Part shown: positions 1 to 40,322 of the stretch, piece after piece
Layout of the letters: each line of letters starts with the position of its first letter
Numbering within the stretch: position 1 is the stretch's first letter
Made by a program: the position numbers and the translations under genes
The notes under the pieces: generated by a model
Database searches by the model: none
What the model was told of the DNA's origin: nothing
Seen by the model: only the letters and a program-made list of their open reading frames with translations
Source of the DNA: a virus
Virus record (IMG/VR): IMGVR_UViG_3300029585_000017
Length of the DNA: 47,882 bases
Reading direction: 5' to 3' (one strand)

Positions 1-99
1 TTTTTTTTTGGAGAAAATAAAAAATGGTAGATATCCAACACGAATCGCTTCCAGACAGCCGTCTCCACGAATGTAAAGGAGCAGCATCTGCCACCGTAG
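1..99. repeat. Terminal overlap copy 1: identical to nt 47784-47882 (circular closure / assembly overlap or short direct terminal repeat)
   Basis: Base-by-base comparison of window start (T9-GGAGAAAATAAAAAATGG...CCACCGTAG) with window end. Confidence 0.95.
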
Positions 100-647
100 G
101 TCAGGTGCTGACAGCAGTTGGAGATGGAACAGCCACTTTCCAAAATCCGGCACTTCTACCTAGAGAATTTATTACAGAAGATGCATTATCAAGTAGTTCC
201 TTCACCGCTCAAACTGTAGCCTCTACAGGTGATGAAAAACAAATTGTTTATGGAGCTCCAGCAGCAAGTCCGGGTAATACAATGTCTATAGACGCTTCTG
301 GCAATATCATATTTAATATTGCAGGAACATATCATCTAACTGGTTTTGTTTCAGCGGGCAGAAGTACAAATACTGGTGTTACAGAATTAGCTTTCTCTCT
401 AAGATACAATGGTACTCAGGTTGGCGCTACAGAAATTGCTAAGATTGATGATAACTCTCAATCTTTAAGTGTCTTATCAGGGAGCGGTATCTTCACTGTC
501 GCAGCAGGAGATATTATCTCTTTACATATGTTGATGGTAGACGATGCTGGGGGAGTCGCAGGGGTATACCCTACAACCGTCCCAAATACAGGTTGGAGTG
601 ATAGCCCGTCCACTAGAATTGCGATAAGTAAATTAGGTGTAGCATAA
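24..647 (+). CDS. Virion-associated protein, C-terminal C1q/TNF-like jelly-roll suspected (fibre or decoration protein)
   Basis: 207-aa ORF, GGAG upstream of the ATG, in structural operon after capsid terminator. Motifs FNIAGTYHLTGFVS and AAGDIISLHM resemble C1q-type GxYxF / GDxVxL strands. Confidence 0.6.
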   Translation: MVDIQHESLPDSRLHECKGAASATVGQVLTAVGDGTATFQNPALLPREFITEDALSSSSFTAQTVASTGDEKQIVYGAPAASPGNTMSIDASGNIIFNIAGTYHLTGFVSAGRSTNTGVTELAFSLRYNGTQVGATEIAKIDDNSQSLSVLSGSGIFTVAAGDIISLHMLMVDDAGGVAGVYPTTVPNTGWSDSPSTRIAISKLGVA

Positions 648-1441
648 TGAAGATGAAGCTAATTGAAATGGTTCAAGATATTCATAACGATTTGGACCTA
701 GACTTAGTTAACAGTATTGACGACACAATTGAATCCCAACAAGTAGCACAGATTATCAAGACAACATATTTTGCTATGATGTCTAACCGTAACTGGCCTC
801 ACCTACGTGAATCAATTTCCCTTGTTCCTTTCTCAAACGCTTCTCTCCCTACTCACATGTCAGTGCCAGAAGGGATGAAGGAACTAGACTTCGTCAACTA
901 TAACGCACAAAAGAAAGATGAGACACGTCTGCGTTATAAAGCTATTAAATGGCTAGAGCCCGATAGCTTCTTACGTAAACAGAATGCTCTCAATACAGAT
1001 GCTGATAATACGTTAGTTGTGACAGACCCTACGGGTGTTCAATTGATGGTTAAAACTGATAAGGCTCCTGAGTTCTTTACATCCTTCGATGATACTACTT
1101 TAGTCTTTGATAGTTACAACAGCGCTGTGGATGATTCTCTGCAAGAATCTAAGTGCCAATGTATGGCATATATGATGCCATCGTGGTCTCAGACAGATGA
1201 CTTTATACCTGACCTTCCTTCGGAAGCTTTTATTTCTCTTCTAGAAGAAGCTAAGAGTAAAGCTTCTCTTAAACTTAAACAGTCTGCTGACAATAAAGCA
1301 GAGCAAGAAGCAGTTCGTCAACGGAATTGGTTGTCACGAAAAGCACGACGTATCGCTGGTGGCATTCATTATCCAAATTATGGACGCAATAGTCATAAGT
1401 ACCGTCGAGATATTACTTTCCAAGAAGGGCGTAATAACTAA
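647..1441 (+). CDS. Head-tail adaptor / tail tubular protein A-like (by position)
   Basis: 264-aa ORF, TAATG coupling to upstream gene, position equivalent to T7 gp11 before the large tube protein. Confidence 0.55.
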   Translation: MKMKLIEMVQDIHNDLDLDLVNSIDDTIESQQVAQIIKTTYFAMMSNRNWPHLRESISLVPFSNASLPTHMSVPEGMKELDFVNYNAQKKDETRLRYKAIKWLEPDSFLRKQNALNTDADNTLVVTDPTGVQLMVKTDKAPEFFTSFDDTTLVFDSYNSAVDDSLQESKCQCMAYMMPSWSQTDDFIPDLPSEAFISLLEEAKSKASLKLKQSADNKAEQEAVRQRNWLSRKARRIAGGIHYPNYGRNSHKYRRDITFQEGRNN

Positions 1442-1638
1442 TGGAATATAAAGGTTTTAAAATCGAAGCTGATGGCACGATGGGTTACCACCATATTAAA
1501 CAACCGGGAAGCGGTGCTGTACCATCAGCTTTAAAAGGGCGTTATACAACAGCTAAGTTTGCAACTGAAGCTATTGACGCGTACCAACCTAAACGGGGAG
1601 CTAAGAAGAAAGATGGCGAGGTCATTACAACAGCTTAA
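1441..1638 (+). CDS. Small hypothetical virion-module protein
   Basis: 65-aa ORF, TAATG start overlap with upstream stop. Confidence 0.5.
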   Translation: MEYKGFKIEADGTMGYHHIKQPGSGAVPSALKGRYTTAKFATEAIDAYQPKRGAKKKDGEVITTA

Positions 1639-4294: not shown

Positions 4295-4586
4295 AGAAAC
4301 TATTATTGATAATAATGACTACACAGTTGATTTACAATATTCAGAGGGTCTTGTATTTCTTCACTGCGATGTTCATAACTTCAACAAGACTGTGTATAAA
4401 AACATGATTCGTGATTGGCTAGACATGGAAGAGGCCCTGTATGATCAGGGTCTTGACAAAGTCTACGCTGTTCCTTTAGAAGAGAAAGGTTTCATTGAAC
4501 GTACTGGTTGGGAATATCTAACATCCTTTGACCACTACGGAACAGAAAGAGAGGTATATGTATGGGAGTTGTCGAAGCAGTGCTAG
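4287..4586 (+). CDS. Hypothetical virion-module protein
   Basis: ORF in operon. ATG at 4287 (MSRETIID) overlaps the upstream stop by 8 nt; the track start 4269 is also possible. Confidence 0.55.
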   Translation: MSRETIIDNNDYTVDLQYSEGLVFLHCDVHNFNKTVYKNMIRDWLDMEEALYDQGLDKVYAVPLEEKGFIERTGWEYLTSFDHYGTEREVYVWELSKQC

Positions 4587-5029
4587 TCGTTTCTGCTCTT
4601 GTTGGCGCAGCATCTGCGGTATCCAGTGCTCAAGCTGCTGGTGATGCGGCAGATGCACAGAAAGAACAATCGGCCCAACAACAAGCCGCTAACACGGCTG
4701 AAGCTGCACGTAGTCGTCGAGAGAACCTACGTAGACAGCGTTTACAACAAGCTGAGATTGAAGCAGCAGGCGCAGCTCAAGGCACAGCAGGAAGTTCAGC
4801 ACAACTTGGCGTAGCCGATAGCCTAGCAGCTGGTACAGCAGCACAGACAGCAGCTACAAGCCAACGTGTCACTAATTTAAATAACCAAGCGCAACAGCAA
4901 AATTTAATTGCAGATGCTCAAGCTCGTCAACAAACATTCCAAGCTATTGGAGGCTTTGCATCTTCTACGTTTAATGTTGCAGCTGGTACATCTGGCGGAC
5001 AAGCAGCGCTAGCTAAAACATTCAGTTAA
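4562..5029 (+). CDS. Ala/Gln-rich internal virion protein with N-terminal hydrophobic segment
   Basis: 155-aa ORF, GAGG 8 nt before the ATG, N-terminus VVEAVLVVSALVGAASAV, position like T7 gp13/14. Confidence 0.6.
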   Translation: MGVVEAVLVVSALVGAASAVSSAQAAGDAADAQKEQSAQQQAANTAEAARSRRENLRRQRLQQAEIEAAGAAQGTAGSSAQLGVADSLAAGTAAQTAATSQRVTNLNNQAQQQNLIADAQARQQTFQAIGGFASSTFNVAAGTSGGQAALAKTFS

Positions 5030-5038
5030 GGAGAGAGT

Positions 5039-8000
5039 ATGTTATCTACAGGTGCGGCTAGCACATTGGCTAGTCAATCTAATGTCACTCCTCGTGACCC
5101 AGCAGCACAATCAGTGCAAGCTGGTTACACCAGCCTAATGGCTGAAGGCGTTCCTACAGGTCAAACATACTACAACGTTATACAAGAGAATGAAGAAGTA
5201 GGGTATAGCCCTACAACACAAGCTGTTAATGACATCTTGTATCAAGAAGAAGGTCAGCGTATGACTGACCTACTTCCTGACATTCTTCTAGATGAGAATC
5301 TTACTGACGAACAGAAGAGAGAGATGCTTGGCTTAACAGTTGACCGTCCTGAGAATGACCTTTCATATCAGTACGCTCGTGACAATCTTGAGTCTCCTGA
5401 ACTTCTCGAAGTAAACAAGGAATATCGAAACAGTAAAGAAGCAGCTCTTGCTTCTCTTAAAACCGTTAATGATTACAACACAGCTATAGATGCTGCTGAA
5501 GACCAAGCGAACATGTCAGATAATCCAAGTTTTGTAAACAATGCTGTGGATTTTGGTATGTTAATGGTTCCTTATTGGGAACAGACAACCATCGCTGAGT
5601 TGTCTAACCTTCTTGGTGGAGATGCTACAGACGTAGCTAAAGCTTTCGTTCTAATGGGGGAGAGTAAACAAGACCTTCGTGAAGCATTTACTAAAATGCC
5701 TCTTGAGGAGCGTGCCCAAGCAGCACAGTTTTTTGTCAATGCTATTGTAGAAGCTAACTCTAATAGCTTCATGACCAATGAACTCAGCACTCGTGGTTTG
5801 ATTGATGCAGTATTGCATGGTGATTACGCAGAGTGGGAATCTTGGTTGGATAATGTTGTTTCCCTAGCAGACCTTTCTATTGTAGGTAAGCCTATAAAGT
5901 GGGGTAGCGATTATCTACGTGGTTTGAATAAAGCCCGTAAGGTAAAGAGTGCAGTAAGATCTTCATCACCTCATCGCATGGCTAATGAGACTAATGCTTC
6001 AGAAGCTAGACGTCAAGTTGCAGAGATGATTGATGATGGTACAGGTGAGACAGCAAGCGCATTGACAGGAGCCTCGCGAGAGGACGCTATACTGGATACA
6101 GTGTTACCAGAAATGGGTGTTGGTGGAGAACTTGCAGGTATTCGTGATAAGGTAGGACGTAGCACTGCCACATATGAGAAGACTCTGATCAGCAATGCTA
6201 ATATTGACGAAGCTTTGAACGACAGTGCTATTGGGGCTCTTACAAGAAAAGAGGTCGAAGCAGCTAATGCCCGTGTTGTAAACAGATTACAAAGCGCTAA
6301 AGGTGTTACTTCTCGTAAAGAGATGTTTGATTTTAAAGAGACAGAGACGGGTGCTAAAATCAGGGGTGTATACGGACCTGAAGAAGGTGGGTGGTCTAGT
6401 GCCAAAGAAGCTAGAGAATTAACAGCTATTGCTCTACGTCCTGAAGGTATTGACTCTAGTGCTATCACTATTCTTAAGAAAGGTGACGATGGAGAGTTCC
6501 GTCCAGTAAAAGGTTTACCAGAAGAAGAAGGTCAATATCTAGCGTCTTTCGACTATGACTATGAGACTAACTTCTCTGACGTTATTGGCAATTGGGAACG
6601 TTTCGATGTTAAGCGTAACTTCTTAGACCGAGCTTCACTCTCAGCTAAAGCTAAAGTGAACCGTCATGTGTTTGATCCCGCATCTACATTAGACTCTCAC
6701 ATTGTGTTTGGAGCTAATGCAGCGGTAGATAAAGCAGCTCGTGTAACTAAACTTATGCTTGAAGACGCTAAGAATTTCTCTGACAAGCTTAATGTGATGG
6801 ATAGTCAAAAGCAACAAGACATCCTGTCATATATTAAAGAAGCTAATGAAAAGGGATGGAAGTTCAATAAAGAAATGGCTCGTGCAGAGTGGAACTTCAA
6901 CGATGACCAACTCGATGCGTTACAATCATTTCGTAATTATTGGGATGATGTGTGGGCTATTCGTAACCGTACTGATGCTAAAGCTATGGCAGATGAAGGT
7001 TACCTAGTGATGGAAGACTTTGCTACTGATACACGTTTCTTCGGCAGACCTCGTCGTTCACAGAACGTAGATACTAACAAAGCTGTGTTCGATCCTGTAA
7101 AAGGTGAGACAACTTCGATTACTCGTGAAGAGTTGAAGCTTCTTGAAGAACAAGGTGGAGGTATTATTCAACTACGTCGCCCTATGGATTACGATGGGGT
7201 CGTTACTGATTATGTCTTAACAACAAAAGCTGGACAAACTCGTGGTGTTACTAAGTCTGATATTGTTTACCCGTATCGTGAAGGGTACTATGAAGTAAAT
7301 TATACACAGCCTCACTTTATTGTGAAAGAAGTTACGGATGGTACACGTACGTATCAGAAAGCAGTAGCTACAGCTGAGACATTCGAAGACGCGCAGTTAT
7401 ACATTCAACGTCTCGCTAAGACAGACCCTGATGGTGTATACACACGTCGTGGGGATATTAAAGACCGTAATGAATTGGCTGGCTTTGAACAAGACATGTA
7501 TGAGTCTTACGGACACGGTAGACAACGTGCTCGTGGCAAGCGTCTAGAGGATGCTACAGCTGTTGTTCGTAATACAGAGCAGGATAATATCAAAGGTCCT
7601 GTGGATGCAATGATTGACACATCGCGTTTGATGGGCAACAGAGTAGCTATGACGGATTACATGAATGCCACAAAGCAGCGTTTCATGGAAACTTATGCCG
7701 ATGTCCTTCCTAAGAAGAATGGGATGACTCAGTTCCCATCTCGTCTAGAAGATATTGGAGATGCTTCAAACGCAACATCGCGTCAAGTCTCAGATGCTCG
7801 TACAACTTTTGAATACATTGCATATCTAGAACATGGGTATATTAACGGTATGTCTGAAGTGAGTAAGTCTGCCCTCCGTACAGCGGCAGATGCTTTAGGC
7901 GCTCGTGGTTTTGGTAAGTTGGAGAAGCTAGCTCGTAAAGCTTCAGAAGCTTCTTTAACAGATACAGCAAAAAGTGCAGCATTCCAACTGTACATTGCTC

Positions 8001-9574
8001 TTAACCCTTTGCGTCAAGGTCTGCTTAATGCTCACCAATCTGCATTGCTTCTAGCTAACTTTCCAAGTTATGCTTTGAACCCTCGCGGTATGACTGCTGA
8101 TTTTACAGCAATGGCTGACTTGGCATTATCTGGGGGTAAGAACCTAAAAGTATTAGCTAAGGCAACTAACCGTTCTGAAGAAGAACTTCGATTCATGTAT
8201 AGAGAGTTCCAGAAATCTGGTCTTGAAGATAGTATTGATGTTCAGAATATGGTACGGGGCACTCTAACAGAGTTCGCTGAGGGGACACGTTTCTCTCAAT
8301 CTACTGCTAGAAAAGTGGTGGGAGCTTCAGTAGGAGGTGTTCGTAAAGTAGGTTTCGATTCTGGTGAATGGGTAAATATGGCGACATCGTGGCTAGCTCA
8401 TTATAACAGAGCGTCTGAAGGGGCTAAGGCTCTTACTAAGACAGACTTACATAAAGTTGGTGCTGAGGCTCGTAACTACACGTTCAATATGAACCGTGCT
8501 GGGGATATGCCTTATAACCAAAACTCTTTTGGACTTCTTGCTCAGTTTTTCCAAGTGCCTCATAAAGCACTGCTTCAACTGACCAACCGTGGGCTGTCTC
8601 GTAACGAGAGAGCTAGACTTGGTTTGTATAATGCGTTAGCTTATAGCTTACCAGCAGGGGCTATGTACTCAATTTTTGGAGATATTCTCCCTGACTATGA
8701 GAAGAACCCAGAGGTTCATAACGCTATTGTACAGGGGTTAGAGTTCTACATGTGGAACAAGATGATAGAAGGTATGACAGGGCTTGATTCTGAAATTGAT
8801 TTCAGTTCTTTGTCTCCGTCTGACCCTTACGGAATCTGGGAAGTGATTCATGGAATATTCACTACAGAGACAGGTTCTTTATTATCAGCTTCTCCAGCAG
8901 GTAGTTTGATATTTGGTAATAATCCACGTATAACAAACCTAGCTAAAACAGCAGCTCGTTTCTTCAATGTTACTGAAGATTTTAAAGGAGACCCTACAAC
9001 GATGTCTCATGTCTTTAACGACATGGCTCACCTATCATCTGGCTACTCAAACTACTATAGAGCTAAGATGGCAGTGGAACACGGGAAACTATATAGCTCT
9101 CGTGGGGAAGTGGTAGACCCAAGTGTCTCCACACCAGAGGCTATTGCTTTAGCTTTTGGATTCCCTACTATGGACGCAGCTCGTGAGTATGCTCTTAATA
9201 ATAAGATATACAAAACTAAAGAAGCTGCACGTAAAGATGTAGACAAGTGGTATAACGAGTACACGACTCGCCTTAACCGTGAAGGGATTACAGCAAAAGA
9301 GATTGATTACACTGTGAAAGTGATGTCACAAGGTATGCTGGCATTTGCTGACAGCCCTTATGCTATGGACAGAATACGTTATAGACTGGAACGTGCTATA
9401 GAGCGTGGTGACAGCTCTATCTATAACGCTGTCTTGAAACTTGCTGGTGAATTGCCACCAGAAGAAGCAGCTAAGTTGATGCGCTCAGTCCCTAACTATG
9501 ATCCAGTTAAGAGACAACAATTGATTGATACAATTGAGAACATCAGAACGTATGATTTTAATGGAGAAGATTAA
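5039..9574 (+). CDS. Giant internal virion / DNA-ejection protein (T7 gp16-like by size and position)
   Basis: 1511-aa ORF, AAGGAG RBS, follows small internal proteins in a podovirus structural operon. Confidence 0.75.
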   Translation: MLSTGAASTLASQSNVTPRDPAAQSVQAGYTSLMAEGVPTGQTYYNVIQENEEVGYSPTTQAVNDILYQEEGQRMTDLLPDILLDENLTDEQKREMLGLTVDRPENDLSYQYARDNLESPELLEVNKEYRNSKEAALASLKTVNDYNTAIDAAEDQANMSDNPSFVNNAVDFGMLMVPYWEQTTIAELSNLLGGDATDVAKAFVLMGESKQDLREAFTKMPLEERAQAAQFFVNAIVEANSNSFMTNELSTRGLIDAVLHGDYAEWESWLDNVVSLADLSIVGKPIKWGSDYLRGLNKARKVKSAVRSSSPHRMANETNASEARRQVAEMIDDGTGETASALTGASREDAILDTVLPEMGVGGELAGIRDKVGRSTATYEKTLISNANIDEALNDSAIGALTRKEVEAANARVVNRLQSAKGVTSRKEMFDFKETETGAKIRGVYGPEEGGWSSAKEARELTAIALRPEGIDSSAITILKKGDDGEFRPVKGLPEEEGQYLASFDYDYETNFSDVIGNWERFDVKRNFLDRASLSAKAKVNRHVFDPASTLDSHIVFGANAAVDKAARVTKLMLEDAKNFSDKLNVMDSQKQQDILSYIKEANEKGWKFNKEMARAEWNFNDDQLDALQSFRNYWDDVWAIRNRTDAKAMADEGYLVMEDFATDTRFFGRPRRSQNVDTNKAVFDPVKGETTSITREELKLLEEQGGGIIQLRRPMDYDGVVTDYVLTTKAGQTRGVTKSDIVYPYREGYYEVNYTQPHFIVKEVTDGTRTYQKAVATAETFEDAQLYIQRLAKTDPDGVYTRRGDIKDRNELAGFEQDMYESYGHGRQRARGKRLEDATAVVRNTEQDNIKGPVDAMIDTSRLMGNRVAMTDYMNATKQRFMETYADVLPKKNGMTQFPSRLEDIGDASNATSRQVSDARTTFEYIAYLEHGYINGMSEVSKSALRTAADALGARGFGKLEKLARKASEASLTDTAKSAAFQLYIALNPLRQGLLNAHQSALLLANFPSYALNPRGMTADFTAMADLALSGGKNLKVLAKATNRSEEELRFMYREFQKSGLEDSIDVQNMVRGTLTEFAEGTRFSQSTARKVVGASVGGVRKVGFDSGEWVNMATSWLAHYNRASEGAKALTKTDLHKVGAEARNYTFNMNRAGDMPYNQNSFGLLAQFFQVPHKALLQLTNRGLSRNERARLGLYNALAYSLPAGAMYSIFGDILPDYEKNPEVHNAIVQGLEFYMWNKMIEGMTGLDSEIDFSSLSPSDPYGIWEVIHGIFTTETGSLLSASPAGSLIFGNNPRITNLAKTAARFFNVTEDFKGDPTTMSHVFNDMAHLSSGYSNYYRAKMAVEHGKLYSSRGEVVDPSVSTPEAIALAFGFPTMDAAREYALNNKIYKTKEAARKDVDKWYNEYTTRLNREGITAKEIDYTVKVMSQGMLAFADSPYAMDRIRYRLERAIERGDSSIYNAVLKLAGELPPEEAAKLMRSVPNYDPVKRQQLIDTIENIRTYDFNGED

Positions 9575-11433
9575 TGACGGACTTGAGAAAATTTCAAGAC
9601 AGGTCACAAACGCAAGCTAACTTAGGTGCTGTTCCAGCTGCTCCTCCTCCTACAACTACAACACTTCAATCGCTAGGGAGCTTTGCACAAGGCATCGCTC
9701 CTTCAGTAGGTCGTGCTGTAGTTGCTGGGCAGAAAGCAGCAGCAGAAGAACGGGTAAATACTAAGCTTGGTGATTTTGCTAACAAGTTAGCTAATGCACA
9801 ACAGGCTGGTAAAACAGACCCTAACTTCAATTTGGAAAATGTACAACGTCAATTATACACAGAGTTTATTGCTCAGAACCCTGCACTAGCTGGGGATGGT
9901 ATTAAGATGTTTACAGACGCTACAGGTCTTAAGCCTTCAGGTCTCACTTTTGAACAGAAAGAAATGCAAGACTTGCAAGAGTCTGCATGGAGCGCTGGTT
10001 TTGGTGACCCTGCAGCTCCACCTAGCGAGAACGCGAAACAGCTTGACCTCTACCAATCTATCCAGCGTGAGTCCAAGATAATGGAACATAACGCTAAGGT
10101 GGATAGTTGGAACAAGTCTCAAAAGCTTACAGAGCTTCAAGGAAGTACAGCGAAACTTTCTACGTGGAAGACTGAGAGTCTTTATGCAACATTGCAGACA
10201 GACCTAGAGACTTTACGTAATGGGGGGGATCGTGCATCTTTGGCAGCTAAGTGGGCTAAGCTTTCTATCGACTGGTCAAACGAACTAGCACAATATGGTG
10301 AGTTTGCTAATGACCCTACAATCAAAGCTCAACTTTCTGGTATTCAGGACATGTTGAAGTTTGGTAAAGAGATGGTAGATGGTACAGTTGAATTGGACAA
10401 TTTGACTAAGCAGAGTGATATTGCTCTAGCTAAGCAGAAAGCCCTATTCACTTCCGACCCTAAAGGTGCAGAACTTATTGCCTTGTCTCAAGCGTTTGGG
10501 CATACCCCGGCAGCACAAGTAGGCACGTCTTTATACGTGAGTGAAGTTATTGCTAAGAAAGGTCCTTCAGACATTCGTGATATGAATGGAGAAGAGAAGA
10601 GTTTTACTCGTGAAACTATTAGCAATATGGCTGGCTCAGAAGAACCCTTGGCACGTGACGAAGCTACAGGTCAAGTGGTTCAAATTGCACAACATCTAGA
10701 CCGTAATGGTATGGATTATACAGATGAGAACATCTTAGAAGTATGTAGCGTATTGGCAGTTCCTAAAGCCTTTGACCAAATGTCATCAGGTGATAAAGAG
10801 CTTGTTAAAAACGCATGTGATACATACGCTGTAGATGTAGCTCAGAAGGCTATTCGTGATATTGAGAACAATGGAAGCATTGCATTCCCAACAGAGGTAA
10901 TCACACCTCGTGGGGATACTCGTCCGGGAGCTCCTAACGTAGTTCCTGTACAATCATTTGCTACTATTGTTGCCGATAACACGGGTCTTCGATACACGGC
11001 GCTTCCTGAGTTTAGAAACAATCGTCAGGTTCAGCGTCAGATTCAAAACCTTAACAGACAGCTTACTAAAGTTAATCCTGTGCTAGAAGTATATTCAGCA
11101 GCTACAGGAGAGACCCCAGCGTTTATTGCTAATGAGTTATGGGGGTTAGGTAACAATGCACGTTCTCAAGCTGACATTGCAGCAGAGCGCCCTGTAGAGG
11201 AACCTGCGCAACCAGAACAACCAGCACCAACGCAAGCAAGCCAAGACCAGTTTAAAGAGGAGTTCATCCAAGCCTCTATTGAAGCTGGTCAGTCACAAGA
11301 AGAAGCAGAAGCGCTGTGGGCACAAGTTAGTGCTCCAGTTGCAGACGCTCCAGCTAGTGATGTCGTTATGATCGGTGGTCAGGAGTTTACACGTGAACAA
11401 GCAAAAGCTGCTCTTAGCGTTCCTGTTCAGTAG
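9574..11433 (+). CDS. Internal virion / ejection-associated protein
   Basis: 619-aa ORF, TAATG coupling to the 1511-aa gene, Pro/Glu/Gln-rich C-terminal linker. Confidence 0.65.
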   Translation: MTDLRKFQDRSQTQANLGAVPAAPPPTTTTLQSLGSFAQGIAPSVGRAVVAGQKAAAEERVNTKLGDFANKLANAQQAGKTDPNFNLENVQRQLYTEFIAQNPALAGDGIKMFTDATGLKPSGLTFEQKEMQDLQESAWSAGFGDPAAPPSENAKQLDLYQSIQRESKIMEHNAKVDSWNKSQKLTELQGSTAKLSTWKTESLYATLQTDLETLRNGGDRASLAAKWAKLSIDWSNELAQYGEFANDPTIKAQLSGIQDMLKFGKEMVDGTVELDNLTKQSDIALAKQKALFTSDPKGAELIALSQAFGHTPAAQVGTSLYVSEVIAKKGPSDIRDMNGEEKSFTRETISNMAGSEEPLARDEATGQVVQIAQHLDRNGMDYTDENILEVCSVLAVPKAFDQMSSGDKELVKNACDTYAVDVAQKAIRDIENNGSIAFPTEVITPRGDTRPGAPNVVPVQSFATIVADNTGLRYTALPEFRNNRQVQRQIQNLNRQLTKVNPVLEVYSAATGETPAFIANELWGLGNNARSQADIAAERPVEEPAQPEQPAPTQASQDQFKEEFIQASIEAGQSQEEAEALWAQVSAPVADAPASDVVMIGGQEFTREQAKAALSVPVQ

Positions 11434-11704
11434 TTTACTTGTTGGCTGTGCCACAACAATGTCTCCAATTGATGTTCCTGTTGATATAGGCGTCAGTGGA
11501 GATGTTGGTGAGGTGAACACCAGCATAACTAATTCTGTACAAAATATTGTGAGTCAAATGGAAGTGTGGCAGATGGCTACTATTGTCTCTCTAGCTTGGC
11601 TAGTTGGGTGGCTATCTCCGGGACCTTTAGAAATTATCAGAGGTTTCTTCTCAGGGCTTACAGAGATTGTTACGGGGGTTAGTAGACTATTTAGGAGAAG
11701 TTAA
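11393..11704 (+). CDS. Lipoprotein with C-terminal TM segment: unimolecular spanin candidate
   Basis: GTG at 11393 lies 7 nt after AGGAG (11381-11385). Signal peptide is MNKQKLLLAFLFSSLLVG|C with lipobox LVGC. C-terminal hydrophobic stretch MATIVSLAWLVGWL. Confidence 0.55.
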   Translation: MNKQKLLLAFLFSSLLVGCATTMSPIDVPVDIGVSGDVGEVNTSITNSVQNIVSQMEVWQMATIVSLAWLVGWLSPGPLEIIRGFFSGLTEIVTGVSRLFRRS

Positions 11705-11707
11705 GCT

Positions 11708-12085
11708 ATGACATTAGAAGGAGAGACTCCGTTGTCTGTCAATGAAAGAGTAGGAATATTTCTGGCAGGGGTTGTTTCTTTCATCTCAATTATGTGTACT
11801 GTCTGGTATGCTGCTATTGCAGTTAATAACTTAACACACGCAATATCACAGGCGAACACAAACATTACAAGGATTGAACGCGTAGTAACTAATACAGCTT
11901 CAGATTTTCAAGAGATCAAAGTGAAAGTTGATTTAAATGCTCTTGAGATAACAAAGCTAAAGAGTTCTAGTACAGGGTTGTCATTCATCGGAGATAACTT
12001 TGTACTGCTAGAATCAGGTAATGGAGAGAAAGTAAAACTTGCTATCTATGTAACCGATGCAGAAGGAAAGAAAAAAGGTGGGTAA
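11708..12085 (+). CDS. Membrane protein (N-terminal TM, helical ectodomain): holin/spanin-like lysis accessory candidate
   Basis: 125-aa ORF, AGGAG RBS, TM segment VGIFLAGVVSFISIMCTVWYAAIAV. Confidence 0.5.
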   Translation: MTLEGETPLSVNERVGIFLAGVVSFISIMCTVWYAAIAVNNLTHAISQANTNITRIERVVTNTASDFQEIKVKVDLNALEITKLKSSSTGLSFIGDNFVLLESGNGEKVKLAIYVTDAEGKKKGG

Positions 12086-12329
12086 TATTCAATTAAGTAA
12101 GATAGATGTACCTAATTGGGTGATTGCTGTTGTAGTTGTAGGAGGTCTTCTCTGGAATGGTGGTAAGAAAGATGCTAATCTTGAGCAGGTTTTAGCTAAT
12201 CAAGGTGTTAAGGCTCAGCAGATTTCTACCATAGAAGGGTTGTTAACTGACAAGAATGTCGAGATTATTGTAATTAAGAAAGACTTAGAAGTTATAGATT
12301 ACAGAGTAAGTAAACTGGAAGATAAGTAA
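12057..12329 (+). CDS. Small membrane protein (single TM plus coiled coil)
   Basis: 90-aa ORF, TM segment NWVIAVVVVGGLLW. Alternative GTG start at 12078 has an AAGGA RBS. Confidence 0.5.
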   Translation: MQKERKKVGNIQLSKIDVPNWVIAVVVVGGLLWNGGKKDANLEQVLANQGVKAQQISTIEGLLTDKNVEIIVIKKDLEVIDYRVSKLEDK

Positions 12330-12330
12330 T

Positions 12331-12537
12331 ATGAATTGGAATGATAAGGTCAAGAAAGAACTTGTTGATAGGGTGTTATGGACAGGTGATATGAATGGAT
12401 CTATTATTGAATGGATGGATTTATATACAGCTAGAGCCCCTTTCAACGATATGTTTGCGAAAAGAGCCTCTCAAATAGGTGTATCGAAAGAACGATTGTT
12501 TCGTGACTTAGACTTCTACATTGACAGTGGTTTGTAA
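12331..12537 (+). CDS. Hypothetical protein, last gene of the + strand arm
   Basis: 68-aa ORF, TAA-T-ATG junction with the upstream gene, followed by a terminator. Confidence 0.5.
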   Translation: MNWNDKVKKELVDRVLWTGDMNGSIIEWMDLYTARAPFNDMFAKRASQIGVSKERLFRDLDFYIDSGL

Positions 12538-12548
12538 AAACCCAAACG

Positions 12549-12601
12549 CAAAAAGGGCGAACCCTCTAGAACTTAATCTATTGGGAACGCCCTTTCTTTT
12601 T
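12549..12601. terminator. Bidirectional intrinsic terminator between the convergent arms
   Basis: AAGGGCG..CCC-loop-GGG..CGCCCTT stem, flanked by an A-run upstream and TTTCTTTTT downstream. Sits between the stops of the + and - arms. Confidence 0.65.
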
Positions 12602-12833
12602 ATGCATACTCTACAGAGCTGCGGATGTCATAGTGATGCTCCAATAAGAACTGTGCATAGTGTACTACTTTCTTCAAGTCTTCACTACCATTCTTATCTT
12701 TATAACGTGTGATATACTTCACAATATTCCCTTCACAAAACGGTAAGTTATTCGCTAGAGAATATTGAAGAGGTTGAATACCTCTGTCTTTGTAGTGATC
12801 ACCACCATACTGGATGTCGAATTGACTCTCCAT
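12600..12833 (-). CDS. DUF3310-family protein
   Basis: Motifs GGDHY, CEGNIVKYITRYKDKNGSEDLKK and HYAQFLL match the DUF3310 pattern as I remember it. Confidence 0.65.
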   Translation of the reverse strand: MESQFDIQYGGDHYKDRGIQPLQYSLANNLPFCEGNIVKYITRYKDKNGSEDLKKVVHYAQFLLEHHYDIRSSVEYA

Positions 12834-13336: not shown

Positions 13337-13617
13337 TACGCAACTCCCTTGTAATCTGTAACAGTACGTTTGAATGGAACAACTTCTGTTAGTTTAATAA
13401 CATCAGGTTCATATTCATACGGGGATTCATCTTGGCACTCTGTAGCACCTTTCGAGTACGAAGTTCTGTAGAACTTACTGGACTCTTTATGTTTCAATAC
13501 TTGACTGTAGTTTAAAGACCAACGAGACTCGCCTTCGAACTTATCTTGTACTACTTCAAAGTTCTCACTCTCACTCATCCAAGCAAGATCTTGTAATTCT
13601 TCTTTACGAACTTCCAT
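13336..13617 (-). CDS. Hypothetical protein
   Basis: 93-aa ORF, start/stop overlap with neighbours. Confidence 0.5.
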   Translation of the reverse strand: MEVRKEELQDLAWMSESENFEVVQDKFEGESRWSLNYSQVLKHKESSKFYRTSYSKGATECQDESPYEYEPDVIKLTEVVPFKRTVTDYKGVA

Positions 13618-13978
13618 GTTCTTCCTTTTTATAGTTAACTACACTTACGTGCAAGCCATTCTTCTTAGCAAGATTGATCATATGATTAGTTCCTTTAGAC
13701 TCCCCGTCCCAGAACGCTAACAGAGCGTCAGCATACTCAGCCATTTCCGCGTTACGGATGTAACCAGCAGCTTTGCCTTTCCCGTCCCAGTCAGCTGGGA
13801 ATCGCTTCACTGGGATACCATACTCTTCAGCAAAACGTTCACCTAACTTGTCAGCACCTCTTGCAGCCCCACTAACAATCTCTAACCCTTTTCGAGGGTA
13901 GTTCTTAATAACGGTTCTTTTTAAGAGTTCATAATCAACAAAATCTCTACCCCCTGCAAGGACTAGTTTAAGAGTCAT
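13604..13978 (-). CDS. SLOG-superfamily (DUF2493 / YspA-like) nucleotide-binding protein
   Basis: Motifs LVLAGGRD, VSGAARGADKLGERFA, FPADWDGKGKAAGYIRN and AFWDGESKGT match DUF2493. Confidence 0.65.
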   Translation of the reverse strand: MTLKLVLAGGRDFVDYELLKRTVIKNYPRKGLEIVSGAARGADKLGERFAEEYGIPVKRFPADWDGKGKAAGYIRNAEMAEYADALLAFWDGESKGTNHMINLAKKNGLHVSVVNYKKEEHGSS

Positions 13979-14265: not shown

Positions 14266-14452
14266 TAAAAGACTCCTTAACAGTTTTCCAGAAGTAGCCA
14301 TAGTTGCCCATGATAGGTCGGCGGTCAGCGTCACATTCATCTCTGGTATAGTAACCCGTCTCCCCTCTTAAAGAGAAAGTCAGAGTACTCTGTGTTCCAG
14401 TATCTAGGTCTCTGTGATGTAGAGGACCTCCGTGGCAAGTGAATTTACCCAT
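14249..14452 (-). CDS. Hypothetical protein (67 aa)
   Basis: ATG at 14452 (MGKFTCHGG) follows a GGGAG; 8-nt overlap with the end of the HNH gene. Confidence 0.45.
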   Translation of the reverse strand: MGKFTCHGGPLHHRDLDTGTQSTLTFSLRGETGYYTRDECDADRRPIMGNYGYFWKTVKESFNGTSN

Positions 14453-14858
14453 CAAGTTTCTCCCTACGTCTACGTTCTACAGCAATAGCACGTTCTTCGC
14501 CAGTCTTCTGGTCATGACATTTCTTACATAAGATTTGCCACCCACCTAACTCTACGAACATACGTTCTACAAATACATCCCACCCCTCATGACCTACAGC
14601 AGGGTCTACTATAGGCTCTATATGGTCTGCAATCTTGTTCTTAAAACGCTTCCCATCAATAACTGTGGAGGTAGGACATTCCTCTCCACACTCAGCACAC
14701 ATAAACCAACCTCTACGCGTACTAGCATTCTTGAGAGCTTGCTGCATAGGAGCCCACTTGCGTGAAGCTCCACGTAACGCTGAGATAATAAAGCTATTAA
14801 AACGTGCCTCAGTCCACTGCCCCGAACAGCGGGTCTTAGGTCCACTAGGTCTCGCCAT
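14445..14858 (-). CDS. HNH endonuclease
   Basis: CxxC...ADHIEPI...WQILCKKCHDQKT (His-Me finger with Zn cysteines). ATG at 14858 lies 6 nt after GGAGAG. Confidence 0.7.
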   Translation of the reverse strand: MARPSGPKTRCSGQWTEARFNSFIISALRGASRKWAPMQQALKNASTRRGWFMCAECGEECPTSTVIDGKRFKNKIADHIEPIVDPAVGHEGWDVFVERMFVELGGWQILCKKCHDQKTGEERAIAVERRRREKLDG

Positions 14859-15036
14859 CACTATCTCTCCATTTCTTAATGGATTCAATAGACAGCACTT
14901 TACAACGTGTTTTCTCTATCATATCAGAGAAGTGTTCAAACATAGCATCAACTGATTTACCTTCAAGTTCAGATATGTAATCACTTACTTCCTGTTTGTC
15001 GCAGGTAGTCCCACAACAGTTGTCTTGTTCCTTCAT
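14845..15036 (-). CDS. Hypothetical Cys-containing small protein (63 aa)
   Basis: ATG at 15036 (MKEQDNCCG) follows GGAGAT; TAA-T-ATG junction with the upstream gene. Confidence 0.5.
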   Translation of the reverse strand: MKEQDNCCGTTCDKQEVSDYISELEGKSVDAMFEHFSDMIEKTRCKVLSIESIKKWRDSDGET

Positions 15037-27782: not shown

Positions 27783-27914
27783 TTTGAAAATCCTAATTTA
27801 CGGGGTGCTAGTACTCTCAGATTTTAGGACTGAGGAAACCTGCGAAAAATTTTGCAGCAAAAATGGGCATAATCGGGCATCGACAAACTCAGCCTTACCC
27901 ATTCTGCTGTGATG

Positions 27915-31492: not shown

Positions 31493-31801
31493 TTACGGGA
31501 CGCTCCCATTAGCTAGGGATACCCCCGCCTCCCAGATAAGTAGCTTTCTCCACTTATCGGGAATCATAAGTTGTAGTTGATTAAGAAAGATGTCGAATGA
31601 TTCATCTCCTCGCTCTAAGAGGAGTTCGAGGTGTTCATTAGTTTCGTCTTTCTTGTCAAGCATTAAGTGTGTCACAATTGCATTGCTATGGTAATAAGTT
31701 CCTACGATTAACGCAGCAACTAGGATACCTAACTTAAATCGCCATTCAGCGAAAGACTTTCTTTTCTGTTTGAACCACCCCGCTATTGCGGGTATTATCA
31801 T
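31493..31801 (-). CDS. Membrane protein
   Basis: 102-aa ORF, TM LGILVAALIVGTYY. RBS cassette AGGTACATATT-ATG is identical to that of 32626-33192. Confidence 0.55.
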   Translation of the reverse strand: MIIPAIAGWFKQKRKSFAEWRFKLGILVAALIVGTYYHSNAIVTHLMLDKKDETNEHLELLLERGDESFDIFLNQLQLMIPDKWRKLLIWEAGVSLANGSVP

Positions 31802-32625
31802 AATATGTACCTGTATTATAGATGGATTTAATACTCAACAACTGTTAGCCACTATCATGTTGTATCATAGCGTTAGACTCCCGATGCTTTTCACACACCT
31901 GTCAATACTGTGAGGGATAGTTATTTACATGAGTACACTTCGATAGTTTCTATGCATGTTATCTATCTGGGACTTATATTACTCGTGTCTAGTCCTTACA
32001 AAGACACTGCCTTGGATTTGTTGTGCTCCATAGCTTATCCTTACTAACCATCTGCATATGAGTTCAGGGAGCTGAGAAGTCTATCACATATTTATACTGT
32101 CATCGATTGTAACAGTAACTAGCTTCGTTATATTCGCAGTGAGACTATTGATGAATAGTCCATACCCGCTCCGCTTTTACGCCGACACGGAGTAGCCGGA
32201 TACTTGCTAGTAATAGAAGGGACATTGTTTGATCAACTGCTACGAGTTGCAATCGCAGAGCCCATCATGCTATCGCTGGTCACGTTTCTTCACACCAACC
32301 CATCATGGCGCTACCCAATCAAACCACCAAGTGAAGAAGTATAGCTTAGTTTAACCACATACCAAGTGGCTTTTACTAACCTCATTTCCTATAACGTACT
32401 GAGGTGTTGCTCAGAATCACTTCAAGGGATTGTTTCTACCGCTGGTATTACCATACAGCACCCTATTTAGTTTTCATCTAAGTCTTTTACTTATTACACT
32501 AGTGCGCTAATAACTTTACACTCCCGATACGAGGGACGCACTATTTACTTCCGGACATTTTTCCAATGATACCAATTCGTACCACCATACCATGAGGAGT
32601 ACATTAGATTGTAATGTCATGATGC

Positions 32626-33192
32626 TTATGCTTCATCAAACTGTGCTGCAAGCTCACACAAGGTCATCAACTGACGCATGTCAGTATCTCGTGCTCGCAA
32701 TACATTGACCAAGTCTTTCATTTCGAAGAGGGGTTCACCTTCTTCATCTTTGGCGTTGAATGCCTTATCCAGTGCATTACCTACAGTTTTCTTGTAGTCA
32801 GTAGGTTTCTTTTCTGGCTTTTTACCATTTTCTTCGAACCAATCCCAGACCGACTTATCAGAGTCATAGAACTCTTTAGCCTTAGCCTTTTTACTGTCAT
32901 GGTTCTTTTTCTTAGCGTGCTTTTTACCGAACGCTTCTTCAGTAGAGTCCCAATCCCATCCCACAAACTTAGGGAAGAATTGCATAGCGACTTTCTTATA
33001 CGCAGGTTTTAGACCAGCGATAAAGGAATTGATTGAAGACACATCATTACAGCGGTTGGTCTCTGCCCAATCGTCATAAACATACGTTAATAGATTTTTA
33101 CAGACAGTTGAGAACTCAGTGTCAGTAATCGCTGCTGCTTTGTGGAACTTGCTGATTTGCTGCGCTATCGCAGACTTAGTAAATTTAGCCAT
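32626..33192 (-). CDS. Hypothetical protein with Lys-rich central region; the only >60-aa ORF inside the coding-poor island
   Basis: 188-aa ORF, AGGTACATATT-ATG cassette, segment GKKHAKKKNHDSKKAKAKE. Confidence 0.6.
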   Translation of the reverse strand: MAKFTKSAIAQQISKFHKAAAITDTEFSTVCKNLLTYVYDDWAETNRCNDVSSINSFIAGLKPAYKKVAMQFFPKFVGWDWDSTEEAFGKKHAKKKNHDSKKAKAKEFYDSDKSVWDWFEENGKKPEKKPTDYKKTVGNALDKAFNAKDEEGEPLFEMKDLVNVLRARDTDMRQLMTLCELAAQFDEA

Positions 33193-33483: not shown

Positions 33484-33872
33484 ACTTATCTACTGTTACC
33501 TGACTTCTTTTGATTCGCTCATAGTTACACGAATGGGACTACCTTTCTTTTGCCAAGTGGTGGAAGTTACGCCACTAGTTCGCGGTAACTGCTTTGGACA
33601 CAGCCCACTAGTCGAGCATTTGAGTTCTTTCGTGCTGCCCTCAGTTCTAGCACGTTTGGGATTTAGTTGCTACTTGCTACAGCTTGCTACACTGTAGAGG
33701 GGCTACAACATTTACACTACACGTTAACACCTCAGAAAATTTTCTCGCAATAATCCTACTATCGGCGCATCGCAAAACCTACCCCACTCAGTGGAGTTAA
33801 GCGTTACATGGTGATTTAGCTATCACTTCACGCTTATGTTTTGTCATAGTGTAGGCTTAACACTGATAGAGC

Positions 33873-35949: not shown

Positions 35950-35978
35950 ATTGTACACATACAAATGGTCACTGTCAA
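35950..35978 (-). promoter_or_regulatory. Near-consensus sigma70-type early promoter (TTGACA-N17-TACAAT)
   Basis: The - strand reads GCTGTTGACAGTGACCATTTGTATGTGTACAATATAC. The palindrome ATGTGTA-N5-TACACAT overlaps the -10 and start site. Confidence 0.7.
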
Positions 35979-36033
35979 CAGCTTGGCGCAAAATATTTTC
36001 TAGCCTAAATTGCGCCTCTGCCGCATTGCAAAA

Positions 36034-38135: not shown

Positions 38136-38179
38136 ATGTCACGTTTTAGACGTTATGGAGGTATATATAAATATAACTA
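38136..38179 (+). promoter_or_regulatory. Phage-specific promoter-like element, copy A (TGTCAC-N19-TATATA), upstream of the tailspike operon
   Basis: ATGTCACGTTTTAGACGTTATGGAGGTATATATAAATATAACTA. It shares an identical 12-mer and an identical 20-mer with copy B. Confidence 0.6.
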
Positions 38180-38560
38180 CTAAGAACTGTAACTAATATA
38201 GTAATAAGTAATAATAAACACATACTATTAACATACTATATACATATACATAACAATGCGTTACTGGTAACACTCGCTTGCGTTCGCTTAAACCCCCTCA
38301 ATCCCTTGGTATATAAGGGCTGAGCTAATATTTAACATTGTTGTAACAAGGAAAATATGTTAATGGGGTGTAAAGCAACTGTTAACTATCTGTTACAAGA
38401 ATGTTACGAGCGTTTTGCTAGATATTGGGAAGGGGTGCATCGGGGGTACGCCCCCTTGGTATATTAATGCATTGAACCTTAAAATTTTCTCACAGAAAAT
38501 ATGAGTATACCCTTTCTTAGTGATAATTATTATTAGGCCAAATAATAGGAAAAGAAGTAA

Positions 38561-40294
38561 ATGACTACAAAAGTTAATAATAGAATGATTGATGGTGAAA
38601 CACTGAACATTCTAGATTTTGGAGCTATTGGGGATGGAGTTACAGATAATACAACTGCATTTCAAACAGCTTTTAGCAAATTGAGCGAAAACTCAACATT
38701 ATACATTCCAGATGGTATTTATAATCTAGCACCGGGTACTGTACTTAAAACTACAGGTGATGGTCAGAATATTGTCGGAAGCAGTAAGAACAAAGCCATC
38801 TTGGTATTTGGTACAATTCACTTAGCTCATTCAGTATGTAGTGTACAGAGTTTAAGAATGTATGGGACAGATACTTATGGTATTCTAGTAGATGATGATA
38901 GAACAGAAGCTGAAAGACAAGCAAGCTATTCTACACGTGCTAGAAGTTGGATTAGTGATGTAGACATTGGTAATAAGACTTATGGTATTGCGTTGACAGA
39001 TACAGGTTTCTTCACACGTATTACAGGTAGCCACCTCTCAGGAAATGAAACAGGTATTTGGCTAGCTAATGACCAAAGCGTAACTACTCCACTATTTAAC
39101 GCATCTTGGGATAGAGGTGATACTTTCATCTCAGATTGTACTATTGCGTCAAACTCCCAATATGGTATTTATGCAAAAAACCATGGTACAGCTCTTATTA
39201 GCAATAATAAGATAATTGGTAATGGTATTAACTTCTACGCTAACCCGGATAGAAGTGGTGGACGTGATGAGCGTGTTATGCAGATGTTTATGTCTAATAA
39301 CTCTCTTGAGAATGCTACTTCAGTAAGAAATGTAAACATTATCAGTGTTGCAGATAATGGAAGCGGCAGAACTCGATACACAACAGATGTTCCTCATCAA
39401 CTACCACAATCGCATGTCTATCGTGGTGATATTAGCGGGACAACTAATTATGATGGTGAAGTAAAAACTTTCTACATCTCTCCAACAGTATTTGATACAG
39501 AGCAATCTTTTGTTGCTAATGAAACAGGTACCCTGTCTCTAGGCGGTTGGGACTTATTTGTAGAACCCGGTGAATCTGGAAGCTGTGCTTACTGGAATCT
39601 TACTGGCGGTGATATTAACCAATATAATATCGAGACAGGTGCAAACTTCAATATTCATAATGTTAATGTAAAATATCAAAGACGTTATGGCTCAGGTATT
39701 GATAGTTTTTCAGATGTTGGTTTAATTAACGGTACTGATAGAACTTCTACAAATGCAGCTATTAATATCTTCCCTAGTGGTGATTTTAATGATGGAGATT
39801 TGTTTACACATCATATTCAACTAGATGGTATGCAAAGACTTTCTTCAGGACTATTCATTGCTAAAAAAGAAGTAGATGCAACTGGCGTAAATCAGAAACC
39901 AATCATTCCTGACTTAGATGGAAACGTCTTTAGTGGGAGTTACATCCCATCACAAGTAGGCTCGAACAGTAATGTAGCCAATGTCATCCATGCAACTGGA
40001 GCGTATACCCGTGTAGGTAACACAGTGAGTGTTTCAGGGTCTTTCGATATTATCCCATCTACTGCGGGAGATACTTATACAGCGTTACGCTTTAATCTTC
40101 CAGTAGCTAGTGATATTGCAGACTCCGCAACGTTAAGTGGCACAGCTGTTTGTAGTTCTGTGGCATATGCAGGAGATATTAGCGCAGCAATTCAAGGAGA
40201 TAATGGTAACAATTGTGCGTTCCTCTCTTTTAAAACGCCTACTACTGATCAGTTGAAATTCCGCTATACTCTTTCATATAGAGTTCTAAGTTAA
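38561..40294 (+). CDS. Tailspike with pectate-lyase-like right-handed beta-helix (depolymerase candidate)
   Basis: N-terminal LNILDFGAIGDGVTDNTTAFQTAF is the hallmark of the Pectate_lyase_3-type domain. Repeated NN/GI beta-helix rungs. Confidence 0.75.
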   Translation: MTTKVNNRMIDGETLNILDFGAIGDGVTDNTTAFQTAFSKLSENSTLYIPDGIYNLAPGTVLKTTGDGQNIVGSSKNKAILVFGTIHLAHSVCSVQSLRMYGTDTYGILVDDDRTEAERQASYSTRARSWISDVDIGNKTYGIALTDTGFFTRITGSHLSGNETGIWLANDQSVTTPLFNASWDRGDTFISDCTIASNSQYGIYAKNHGTALISNNKIIGNGINFYANPDRSGGRDERVMQMFMSNNSLENATSVRNVNIISVADNGSGRTRYTTDVPHQLPQSHVYRGDISGTTNYDGEVKTFYISPTVFDTEQSFVANETGTLSLGGWDLFVEPGESGSCAYWNLTGGDINQYNIETGANFNIHNVNVKYQRRYGSGIDSFSDVGLINGTDRTSTNAAINIFPSGDFNDGDLFTHHIQLDGMQRLSSGLFIAKKEVDATGVNQKPIIPDLDGNVFSGSYIPSQVGSNSNVANVIHATGAYTRVGNTVSVSGSFDIIPSTAGDTYTALRFNLPVASDIADSATLSGTAVCSSVAYAGDISAAIQGDNGNNCAFLSFKTPTTDQLKFRYTLSYRVLS

Positions 40295-40322
40295 GAATCC
40301 TACGGTTATAAAGGAAAAATAA

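Follow-up and report, generated by a model that had tools for sequence, protein, structure and literature searches.

Promoters read by ECF sigma factors are bipartite, with spacers of 15-17 nt, as in those of E. coli sigmaE (GGAACTT-N16-TCAAA) and B. subtilis sigmaW (TGAAAC-N16-CGTATA). In these promoters the -35 box is followed by a T-tract (tGAAACnTTTt), spacers range from 14 to 17 bp, and the -10 element is of the CGTA or CGTC type (PMC5758882; see also PMC1540707). In the structure of sigmaE4 bound to -35 DNA, the box GGAACTT occupies positions -35 to -29 and is followed by a T-rich region, R176 hydrogen-bonds G-35, and R171 hydrogen-bonds the G opposite C-31; across ECF sigmas, arginine or lysine at the R171 position correlates with C-31 (PMC1540707).

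Among phages, the podophages phiEco32 (sigma gp36) and 7-11 lack an RNA polymerase, express their early genes from host sigma70 promoters and use a small phage sigma for middle and late genes. In phage 7-11, a relative of phiEco32, a sigma-dependent promoter was predicted upstream of the sigma gene, and promoters of the phiEco32 type have as their consensus one box of 9 bp, TAATGTATA, near -10 (PMC4331800). The Zobellviridae have been stated to be without RNA polymerase and likened to the sigma-switching phiEco32 (PMC9960094), and in the literature searched no description of sigma-dependent promoters, or of any promoter class, was found for this family. The T4 late promoter is described as TATAAATA (PMC13627669). 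Late transcription in T4 proceeds without a -35 element, and sigma function is divided over gp55 and gp33 with the gp45 clamp, gp33 not being DNA-binding. T4 middle promoters have, in place of the -35 element of the host, an upstream box specific to the phage above a TATA-rich -10 region; this MotA box is centred near -30 and works via AsiA-remodelled sigma70.

The window analyzed here, by which the whole stretch of 47,882 nt (IMG/VR record IMGVR_UViG_3300029585_000017) is meant, contains three near-identical copies of a 44-nt element that probably represent the complete set of promoters served by host core RNA polymerase together with an ECF-type sigma of the phage's own. The elements share with ECF promoters the bipartite layout, a spacer within the above range, a T-tract directly after the -35 box and a short -10 element comparable to 'xGTATA'. 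The sigma has regions 2 and 4 only and is encoded downstream of one of its presumed promoters, and bases -31 and -35 of the box vary together with the residues that align with R171 and R176 of sigmaE. Unlike in ECF promoters, the -35 box lacks AAC (CAC in the window, GGG in its sister phages), the -10 element reads GGTATA, with ACTATA in relatives, and is not a clear CGT-type element, an extra GTTAT box occupies the spacer, the sigma is encoded in two overlapping ORFs, no anti-sigma was noted, and the regulon would consist of three phage operons.

As in the transcription programme of phiEco32 and 7-11, the window belongs to a podophage without recognisable RNA polymerase, with early genes probably on host sigma70 promoters and a small phage sigma presumably serving middle and late genes. 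A candidate sigma-specific promoter (copy C) lies upstream of the sigma gene, in line with the prediction for phage 7-11; unlike the single phiEco32 box, two or three boxes extend over ~30 bp. The likeness to the T4 late system lies in the presumed division of sigma function over two polypeptides, and the T4 late promoter sequence also occurs within all three copies. A T4-type late promoter was rejected, as that sequence is absent in most copies of relatives (TATAATAA, TATAGTTA, TATATTAA), where the upstream box is conserved; moreover, unlike in T4, there is a conserved -35 box, and in place of gp33 the second polypeptide is a genuine region 4 of a sigma and has an HTH. The phage-specific upstream box over a TATA-rich -10 region is also reminiscent of T4 middle promoters, from which the window differs in that its box stands at -35 distance and a complete pair of sigma regions 2 and 4 is encoded. 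Phage-encoded ECF-like sigmas with cognate middle and late promoters are thus a known kind of system; what is new here is the non-AAC -35 box re-targeted between sister phages, the extra spacer box and the sigma in two pieces.

The three elements and the genes they precede

The window is a complete podophage genome of ~48 kb from a Vibrio phage belonging to the Zobellviridae. Its portal protein is 82-93% identical to those of Vibrio phages PS32B, 521E56-1, 1.264.O, VPMCC5, T4S1 and 1.253.O, and 50-65% identical to those of Pseudomonas PA11/TC6, Citrobacter CVT22 and Vibrio ICP2; most records of these relatives are classed as Zobellviridae. The plus strand (38561-47744 and 24-12712) encodes the tailspike, large terminase, portal, scaffold-like protein, major capsid, tail tube proteins and a 1511-aa internal virion protein. 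On the minus strand, between 37489 and ~12600, early ORFs of unknown function are accompanied by genes for an AAA ATPase, a T7-type primase-helicase, a family A DNA polymerase and exonucleases. The ORFs scanned, among them every ORF >300 aa, showed no RNA polymerase domain, and neither Rfam families nor tRNAs were detected in the window. Accessory minus-strand ORFs included a DUF6847 protein, located between the primase-helicase and a conserved non-coding segment, as well as a YspA/SLOG-family protein and an HNH endonuclease (Table 1).

The motif TGTCAC-N9-GTTAT-N3-GGTATATA was present three times in the window at 0 mismatches, against 0.04 expected by chance (mean of 100 shuffles, none of which reached 3), and no match beyond copies A, B and C appeared when up to 3 mismatches were accepted. 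A relaxed scan (≤1 mismatch in each hexamer, spacer 16-18) yielded 13 matches including the three copies, compared to a shuffle mean of 7.5 and a maximum of 14; the extra matches are therefore at chance level, and the window has exactly three sites. These coincide with the coordinates given in a preliminary description of this DNA, which had also placed them in gaps between ORFs and oriented along the genes downstream, as was found for all three. The 12-mer and 20-mer that it ascribed to both copies A and B proved exact, ATGTCACGTTTT and GGTATATATAAATATAACTA being identical between the two. The 19-nt spacer it proposed is correct when counted from TGTCAC to TATATA, while the distance to GG is 17 nt; the position of the AAATATA tail varies, copy C having one TA less than A and B between GG and AAATATA. 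The exact motif had 0 matches in IMG/VR, and the core of copy C, CACACGTTAT-N5-TATA, matched 82 loci there, 0 of them encoding a relative (tblastn).

Copy A heads the plus-strand block, 380 nt ahead of the tailspike ORF. Copy B separates the portal gene and a 79-aa ORF from the scaffold and capsid genes, and copy C lies between the AAA ATPase and primase-helicase genes. Beyond the capsid genes, a terminator-like hairpin followed by T9, called by consensus scan only, is the probable end, or an attenuator, of the copy B unit. In the ORF-free leader 3' of copy A, the exact 12-mer CCCTTGGTATAT occurs twice, 150 nt apart; it includes GGTATAT and has no GTCAC box upstream.

Table 1. Coordinates of the elements, transcription units and other features of the window
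Feature	Coordinates	Strand	Remarks
Copy A	38136-38179	+	ATGTCACGTTTTAGACGTTATGGAGGTATATATAAATATAACTA
Copy A, boxes	TGTCAC (provisional -35) 38137-38142; T-tract 38144-38147; GTTAT 38152-38156; GGTATA 38160-38165	+	
Copy A, predicted start	~38173 ± 2	+	sigmaE numbering
Copy B	45591-45634	+	ATGTCACGTTTTCCTTGTTATCAAGGTATATATAAATATAACTA
Copy B, boxes	TGTCAC 45592-45597; GTTAT 45607-45611; GGTATA 45615-45620	+	
Copy B, predicted start	~45628 ± 2	+	sigmaE numbering
Copy C	23948-23911	-	TTGTCACTTTTCACACGTTATGACGGTATATAAATATA
Copy C, boxes	TGTCAC 23947-23942; GTTAT 23932-23928; GGTATA 23924-23919	-	
Copy C, predicted start	~23911 ± 2	-	sigmaE numbering
Copy A unit	tailspike 38561; terminase 41727; portal 43597	+	first late unit
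Copy B unit	scaffold 45681; major capsid 46450	+	
Copy C unit	primase-helicase 23841-22183; sigma2; sigma4; DNA polymerase	-	replication unit
Sigma region-2 ORF (sigma2)	21236-21493	-	85 aa; Pfam Sigma70_r2, 28.7 bits (gathering 24)
Sigma region-4 ORF (sigma4)	20934-21239	-	101 aa; Pfam Sigma70_r4_2, 32.2 bits (gathering 25.7)
Sigma70 matches of 11-12/12	37729; 35978; 34946; 34618; 30508	-	consensus scan
Terminator-like hairpin, T9	47769-47784	+	consensus scan only
12-mer CCCTTGGTATAT	38303-38314; 38453-38464	+	leader 3' of copy A
Non-coding segment	21494-21790	-	ORF-free, ~290 nt
DUF6847 ORF	21884-22183	-	
YspA/SLOG-family ORF	13604-13978	-	
HNH endonuclease ORF	14445-14888	-	
Motif AAAATTTTCT-N3-A(G/A)AAAT	23948-23966; 27846-27864; 33736-33754; 35992-36010; 38481-38499		given as + strand
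Block GGGGGTACGCCCCC..TTAATGCATTGAACCTTAAAATTTTCTCACAGAAAAT	38430-38500	+	between copy A and tailspike ORF
Regions without ORF ≥70 aa	33200-35080; 31800-32626		early region

Assignment of the boxes

The block [GA][GC]TATA was the only downstream one kept in all genomes, including those of phages with an unsplit sigma, which suggests GTCAC for positions -35 to -31 and GGTATA for the -10 element. Provisionally, then, and in answer to a point left undecided in the preliminary description, TGTCAC would be the -35 element and GGTATA the -10 element of a promoter with a 17-nt spacer. The arrangement TGTCAC-N17-GGTATA was found in all three copies and the same spacing at 17 sites of relatives, within the 14-17 bp of ECF promoters (PMC5758882). 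The box is followed by a T-tract both in the window (GTCACgTTTT in copies A and B, GTCACTTTT in copy C) and in relatives (GAGGGgTTT and TAGGGTTTTT), 1.253.O having AAAA instead. Of the AAC conserved in ECF -35 boxes, only the C, at -31, is present, and that in only three of five box classes. GGTATA agrees with the CGTATA of sigmaW in 5 of 6 bases, without the C, the corresponding blocks of relatives being ACTATA or GCTATA.

No TTGACA-like hexamer 16-18 nt upstream of a TATAAT-like one was detected at any of the three sites on their own strand (scan at ≥9/12); in copy A, the hexamer located by hand 17 nt upstream of TATAAA is GTTTTA (2/6). All matches of 11-12/12 to the sigma70 consensus fell between 30.5 and 37.7 kb, in the early region, and were on the minus strand; there were none between 12 and 30 kb. 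The view that the three elements do not fit the consensus sigma70 promoters of the early region was thereby upheld; the argument from an unusual 19-nt spacing is not needed, since 17 nt is a usual distance in ECF promoters. Hexamers resembling TATAAA or TATAAT occur in the -10 region, which is strongly AT-rich, and some activity with host sigma70 is possible.

GTTAT occupies a fixed spacer position throughout the clade with a split sigma, where some copies read ATTAT and one copy of VPMCC5 reads CTTAT, and is absent from 1.253.O, T2S2 and TC6. As this clade is a single lineage, the link between GTTAT and the split is only a correlation. The box is strongly conserved and yet not accounted for by a two-box model. 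GTTAT is not taken for a -10 element of the ECF 'GTT' kind, because a conserved box is missing 16-18 nt upstream of it and the phages with an unsplit sigma lack GTTAT and keep [GA][GC]TATA.

A two-ORF sigma and its co-variation with the box

The phage sigma presumed in the preliminary description was confirmed as two ORFs, matching sigma regions 2 and 4 above the Pfam gathering scores (Table 1), and the two sigma ORFs are already annotated as such in GenBank records. The start of the sigma4 ORF overlaps the stop of sigma2 as ATGA, and regions 2 and 4, which usually share one polypeptide in ECF sigmas, are thus separate in the window. Two sigma ORFs with a 4-nt overlap are also annotated in PS32B-12, 521E56-1, 1.264.O, VPMCC5 and T4S1. 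By contrast, 1.253.O has one sigma ORF of 161 aa that aligns with both halves (its N-terminal half with sigma2), and single unsplit ORFs are found in T2S2 (167 aa) and CVT22 (159 aa). The products of these three pass NCBIfam TIGR02937 (sigma70-ECF), while the single 167-aa ORF of TC6 is a sigma factor by annotation alone. The presence of a whole sigma in these four phages indicates that the sigma is ancestral to the family and that the split arose in the clade of the window. No canonical in-frame slippery heptamer was seen by eye at the overlap, which makes synthesis as two coupled polypeptides more likely than a frameshift fusion. The sigma4 ORF further carries an N-terminal extension of ~40 aa that has no counterpart in the unsplit proteins.

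Copy C is on the same strand as both ORFs, 2.4 kb upstream of them, and the scan revealed no minus-strand terminator-like site in between. Alignment of sigma4 against IMG/VR confirmed no relative. In metagenome contigs, sigma2 aligned at at least 9 loci, all distant and mostly short among the matches listed, and a protein search with sigma4, in an index without the window's own sigma4, yielded two short extra contigs, both without the promoters.

Directly upstream of the sigma2 ORF is a non-coding segment that is 86% identical to PS32B phages and 83% to 1.264.O, in genomes that otherwise share almost no megablast-level similarity; it was found in only 13 phage records. Its predicted RNA fold (-87.9 kcal/mol, z = -2.9) comprises a long-range closing helix and a hairpin with compensatory changes (CCGU/ACGG vs. 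CUUU/AAAG), and four ACAUCCGA repeats are present. Rfam gave no match to the segment even at E ≤ 1; the segment may be a structured RNA or serve as the leader of the sigma operon.

The six related Vibrio phages carry the element at the A, B and C places with the same orientation and spacing, each with an upstream pentamer of its own. The pentamer GTCAC of the window (3 copies) is replaced by GAGGG in PS32B-12, 521E56-1 and 1.264.O (3 copies each), by TAGGG in VPMCC5 (3 copies) and T4S1 (2 copies, a search for its A site having been negative) and by GACAC in 1.253.O (3 copies). When every genome was scanned for all four pentamers, its own was found at the syntenic sites, with only two strays, both intragenic. 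The more distant T2S2 has a single copy, at place B, with GACCC. The spacing and the [GA][GC]TATA element were kept in the copies of all relatives, and the window and PS32B copies at place B have nearly the same flanks around a replaced pentamer. Co-orientation with the downstream genes was strict at 20 sites in eight genomes. In TC6, CVT22 and T2S2, only the site upstream of the scaffold gene was recognisable. A short box that has changed in concert at all sites of a genome points to a reader that is phage-encoded and has changed with it, and a host factor is made less likely by the fact that the box differs between phages whose Vibrio hosts are closely related.

The window's sigma4 recognition helix, AAVRKTLSRVGKK, and those of the relatives were aligned with MAFFT to GTVRSRIFRAR of sigmaE, the contact columns having been fixed beforehand from the sigmaE4/DNA structure. 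The RpoE sequence used agrees in its length of 191 and in residues 149-178 with the numbering of PMC1540707. The helices of the window (AAVRKTLSRVG) and of 1.253.O (NSVRSIIKRYK) have R in the R171 column and C at base 5 of the box, together with R in the R176 column and G at base 1. PS32B and 1.264.O (KTVEGVLYRVG) combine E with G at base 5 and R with G at base 1, and T4S1 (KTVEKTLTKVG) and VPMCC5 (KTVEKTLNKVS) combine E with G at base 5 and K with T at base 1. T2S2 (EAVKSTVRRFK), which together with TC6 and CVT22 has a helix too diverged for the co-variation test, reads K with C at base 5 and R with G at base 1. Base 5 is thus C with R or K and G with E in the R171 column, and base 1 is G with R and T with K in the R176 column, in a sample of five specificity classes that probably reflects about two independent evolutionary changes. 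This pairing fits contacts of arginine or lysine with a template-strand G and of glutamate with a template-strand C. No simple residue rule emerged in the alignment for box positions 2-4 (-34 to -32). A genome-specific box that co-varies with the sigma4 helix is what a cognate sigma/promoter pair predicts. The scan of relatives that had been named as a check thus located the element at the same syntenic places with a genome-specific box, and its proposed role as cognate promoter of the phage sigma is supported by both synteny and co-variation.

These data bear on the strongest alternative, in which sigma70 of the host would use the TATA-rich -10 region of promoters that lack a -35 element, recruited by a phage activator bound at TGTCAC and/or GTTAT in the manner of MotA, possibly with the region-4 ORF as the activator rather than part of a sigma. 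The -10 region does hold TATAAA in the window and TATAAT in the PS32B copies, the region-4 ORF encodes a free-standing HTH protein, and GTTAT is an extra conserved box, superfluous to a two-box sigma model. Against this, the region-2 and region-4 ORFs are translationally coupled in six genomes and fused in four others, which argues for one sigma function; a 17-nt distance to the -10 element and a T-tract give the box ECF geometry rather than a position centred near -30; a TG extended -10 motif is absent; and the sites were not called in the sigma70 scan. We therefore regard an activated sigma70 promoter as unlikely.

Proposed transcription programme and alternative readings

Recognition by a phage sigma, the reading favored here, would involve binding of the region-4 polypeptide to (T)GTCAC as the -35 box, aided by the adjoining T-tract, and recognition and melting of GGTATA(TA), 17 nt downstream of that box, by the region-2 polypeptide, with transcription starting ~7-8 nt past GGTATA, within the AT-rich tail. 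The early minus-strand genes (37.5 to ~25 kb) would be transcribed from host sigma70 promoters, and read-through into the sigma ORFs may provide the first supply of sigma. This sigma would then activate copy C, and with it the replication genes and its own synthesis (positive feedback), as well as copies A and B, and with them the virion genes. Copies A-C are placed where the late and middle units need a promoter and where no good sigma70 match exists. Sigma dependence, box assignment, start sites and timing are all predictions from sequence.

A more far-reaching version can be put forward only tentatively, as a possible but doubtful extension. In it, the sigma would work as two polypeptides, the free sigma4 would have evolved distinct -35 specificities (GTCAC, GACAC, GACCC, GAGGG, TAGGG), and the promoter would be tripartite, GTTAT being read by the ~40-residue N-terminal extension of sigma4 or by another phage factor. 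If true, the phage would possess an ECF sigma that is naturally split, can be re-targeted and makes a third contact with its promoter; were the two ORFs to act as a split sigma, they would be a natural counterpart of engineered split sigmas and a closer sigma70-family analogue of T4 gp55/gp33. The favored reading provides a testable transcription map, with host sigma70 early units followed by three sigma-specific units, for a podophage family that is widespread, marine as well as clinical, and has no RNA polymerase of its own. The sister phages, in which one or two sigma4 helix residues go with defined -35 base changes, also form a natural specificity-swap series that is useful for understanding and engineering orthogonal ECF sigma/promoter pairs.

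That the elements are not promoters at all, and are instead sites for a regulator (a repressor, or a replication or packaging factor) lying at operon boundaries by chance, appears very improbable. Copy C adjoins a palindromic motif, AAAATTTTCT, that recurs through the early region, and copy A is near a block matching the start of the TC6 record, which speaks for such sites; the strict co-orientation with genes across genomes, the bipartite -35/-10 geometry and the placement exactly where late and middle units need a promoter and lack a good sigma70 match speak against it. Hardly any weight is given to promoters for an unrecognised phage-encoded or virion-borne RNA polymerase, since none of the ORFs scanned showed a domain of such an enzyme, the 1511-aa ORF gave matches to families of internal virion proteins, RNA polymerase is reported to be missing from the Zobellviridae (PMC9960094), and the co-variation of sigma4 residues would be left unexplained; a T7-type polymerase promoter was rejected accordingly, no polymerase having been found. 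In favor of a polymerase are the ~40-nt continuously conserved element ending in (C)ACTATA/GGTATA, which resembles the promoters of single-subunit polymerases of the T7 group, a portal, primase-helicase and DNA polymerase that place the phage in the T7-like supergroup, and two large ORFs (1511 and 619 aa) without a Pfam domain. In addition, copies of the PS32B type read GTTATCCCACTATATAAT, which recalls what we take to be the T7/SP6 promoter form ...CACTATAG.

Some further features of the early region and of the leader downstream of copy A were recorded. Two stretches of the early region have no ORF ≥70 aa, and neither tRNAs nor Rfam families were detected in them; the longer one contains several of the best minus-strand sigma70 matches (34946, 34618). 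The palindromic-core motif family (Table 1) is often followed in the early region, 10-12 nt further on, by a GCATCGCAAAAC-like box, and is also present in every Vibrio relative analyzed as well as in T2S2 and Pseudomonas phage TC6. One of its members abuts copy C on the other strand and a second is located immediately upstream of the 11/12 sigma70 match at 35978; possible roles of the motif are those of an operator, of a hairpin resembling a terminator or of a component of early promoters. Finally, blocks similar by eye to the one between copy A and the tailspike ORF precede the late genes of PS32B-12, 1.264.O, VPMCC5, 1.253.O, T2S2, CVT22 and TC6. The linear TC6 record begins with such a block, which may mark a genome terminus or packaging site, so that copy A may sit just upstream of the terminus.
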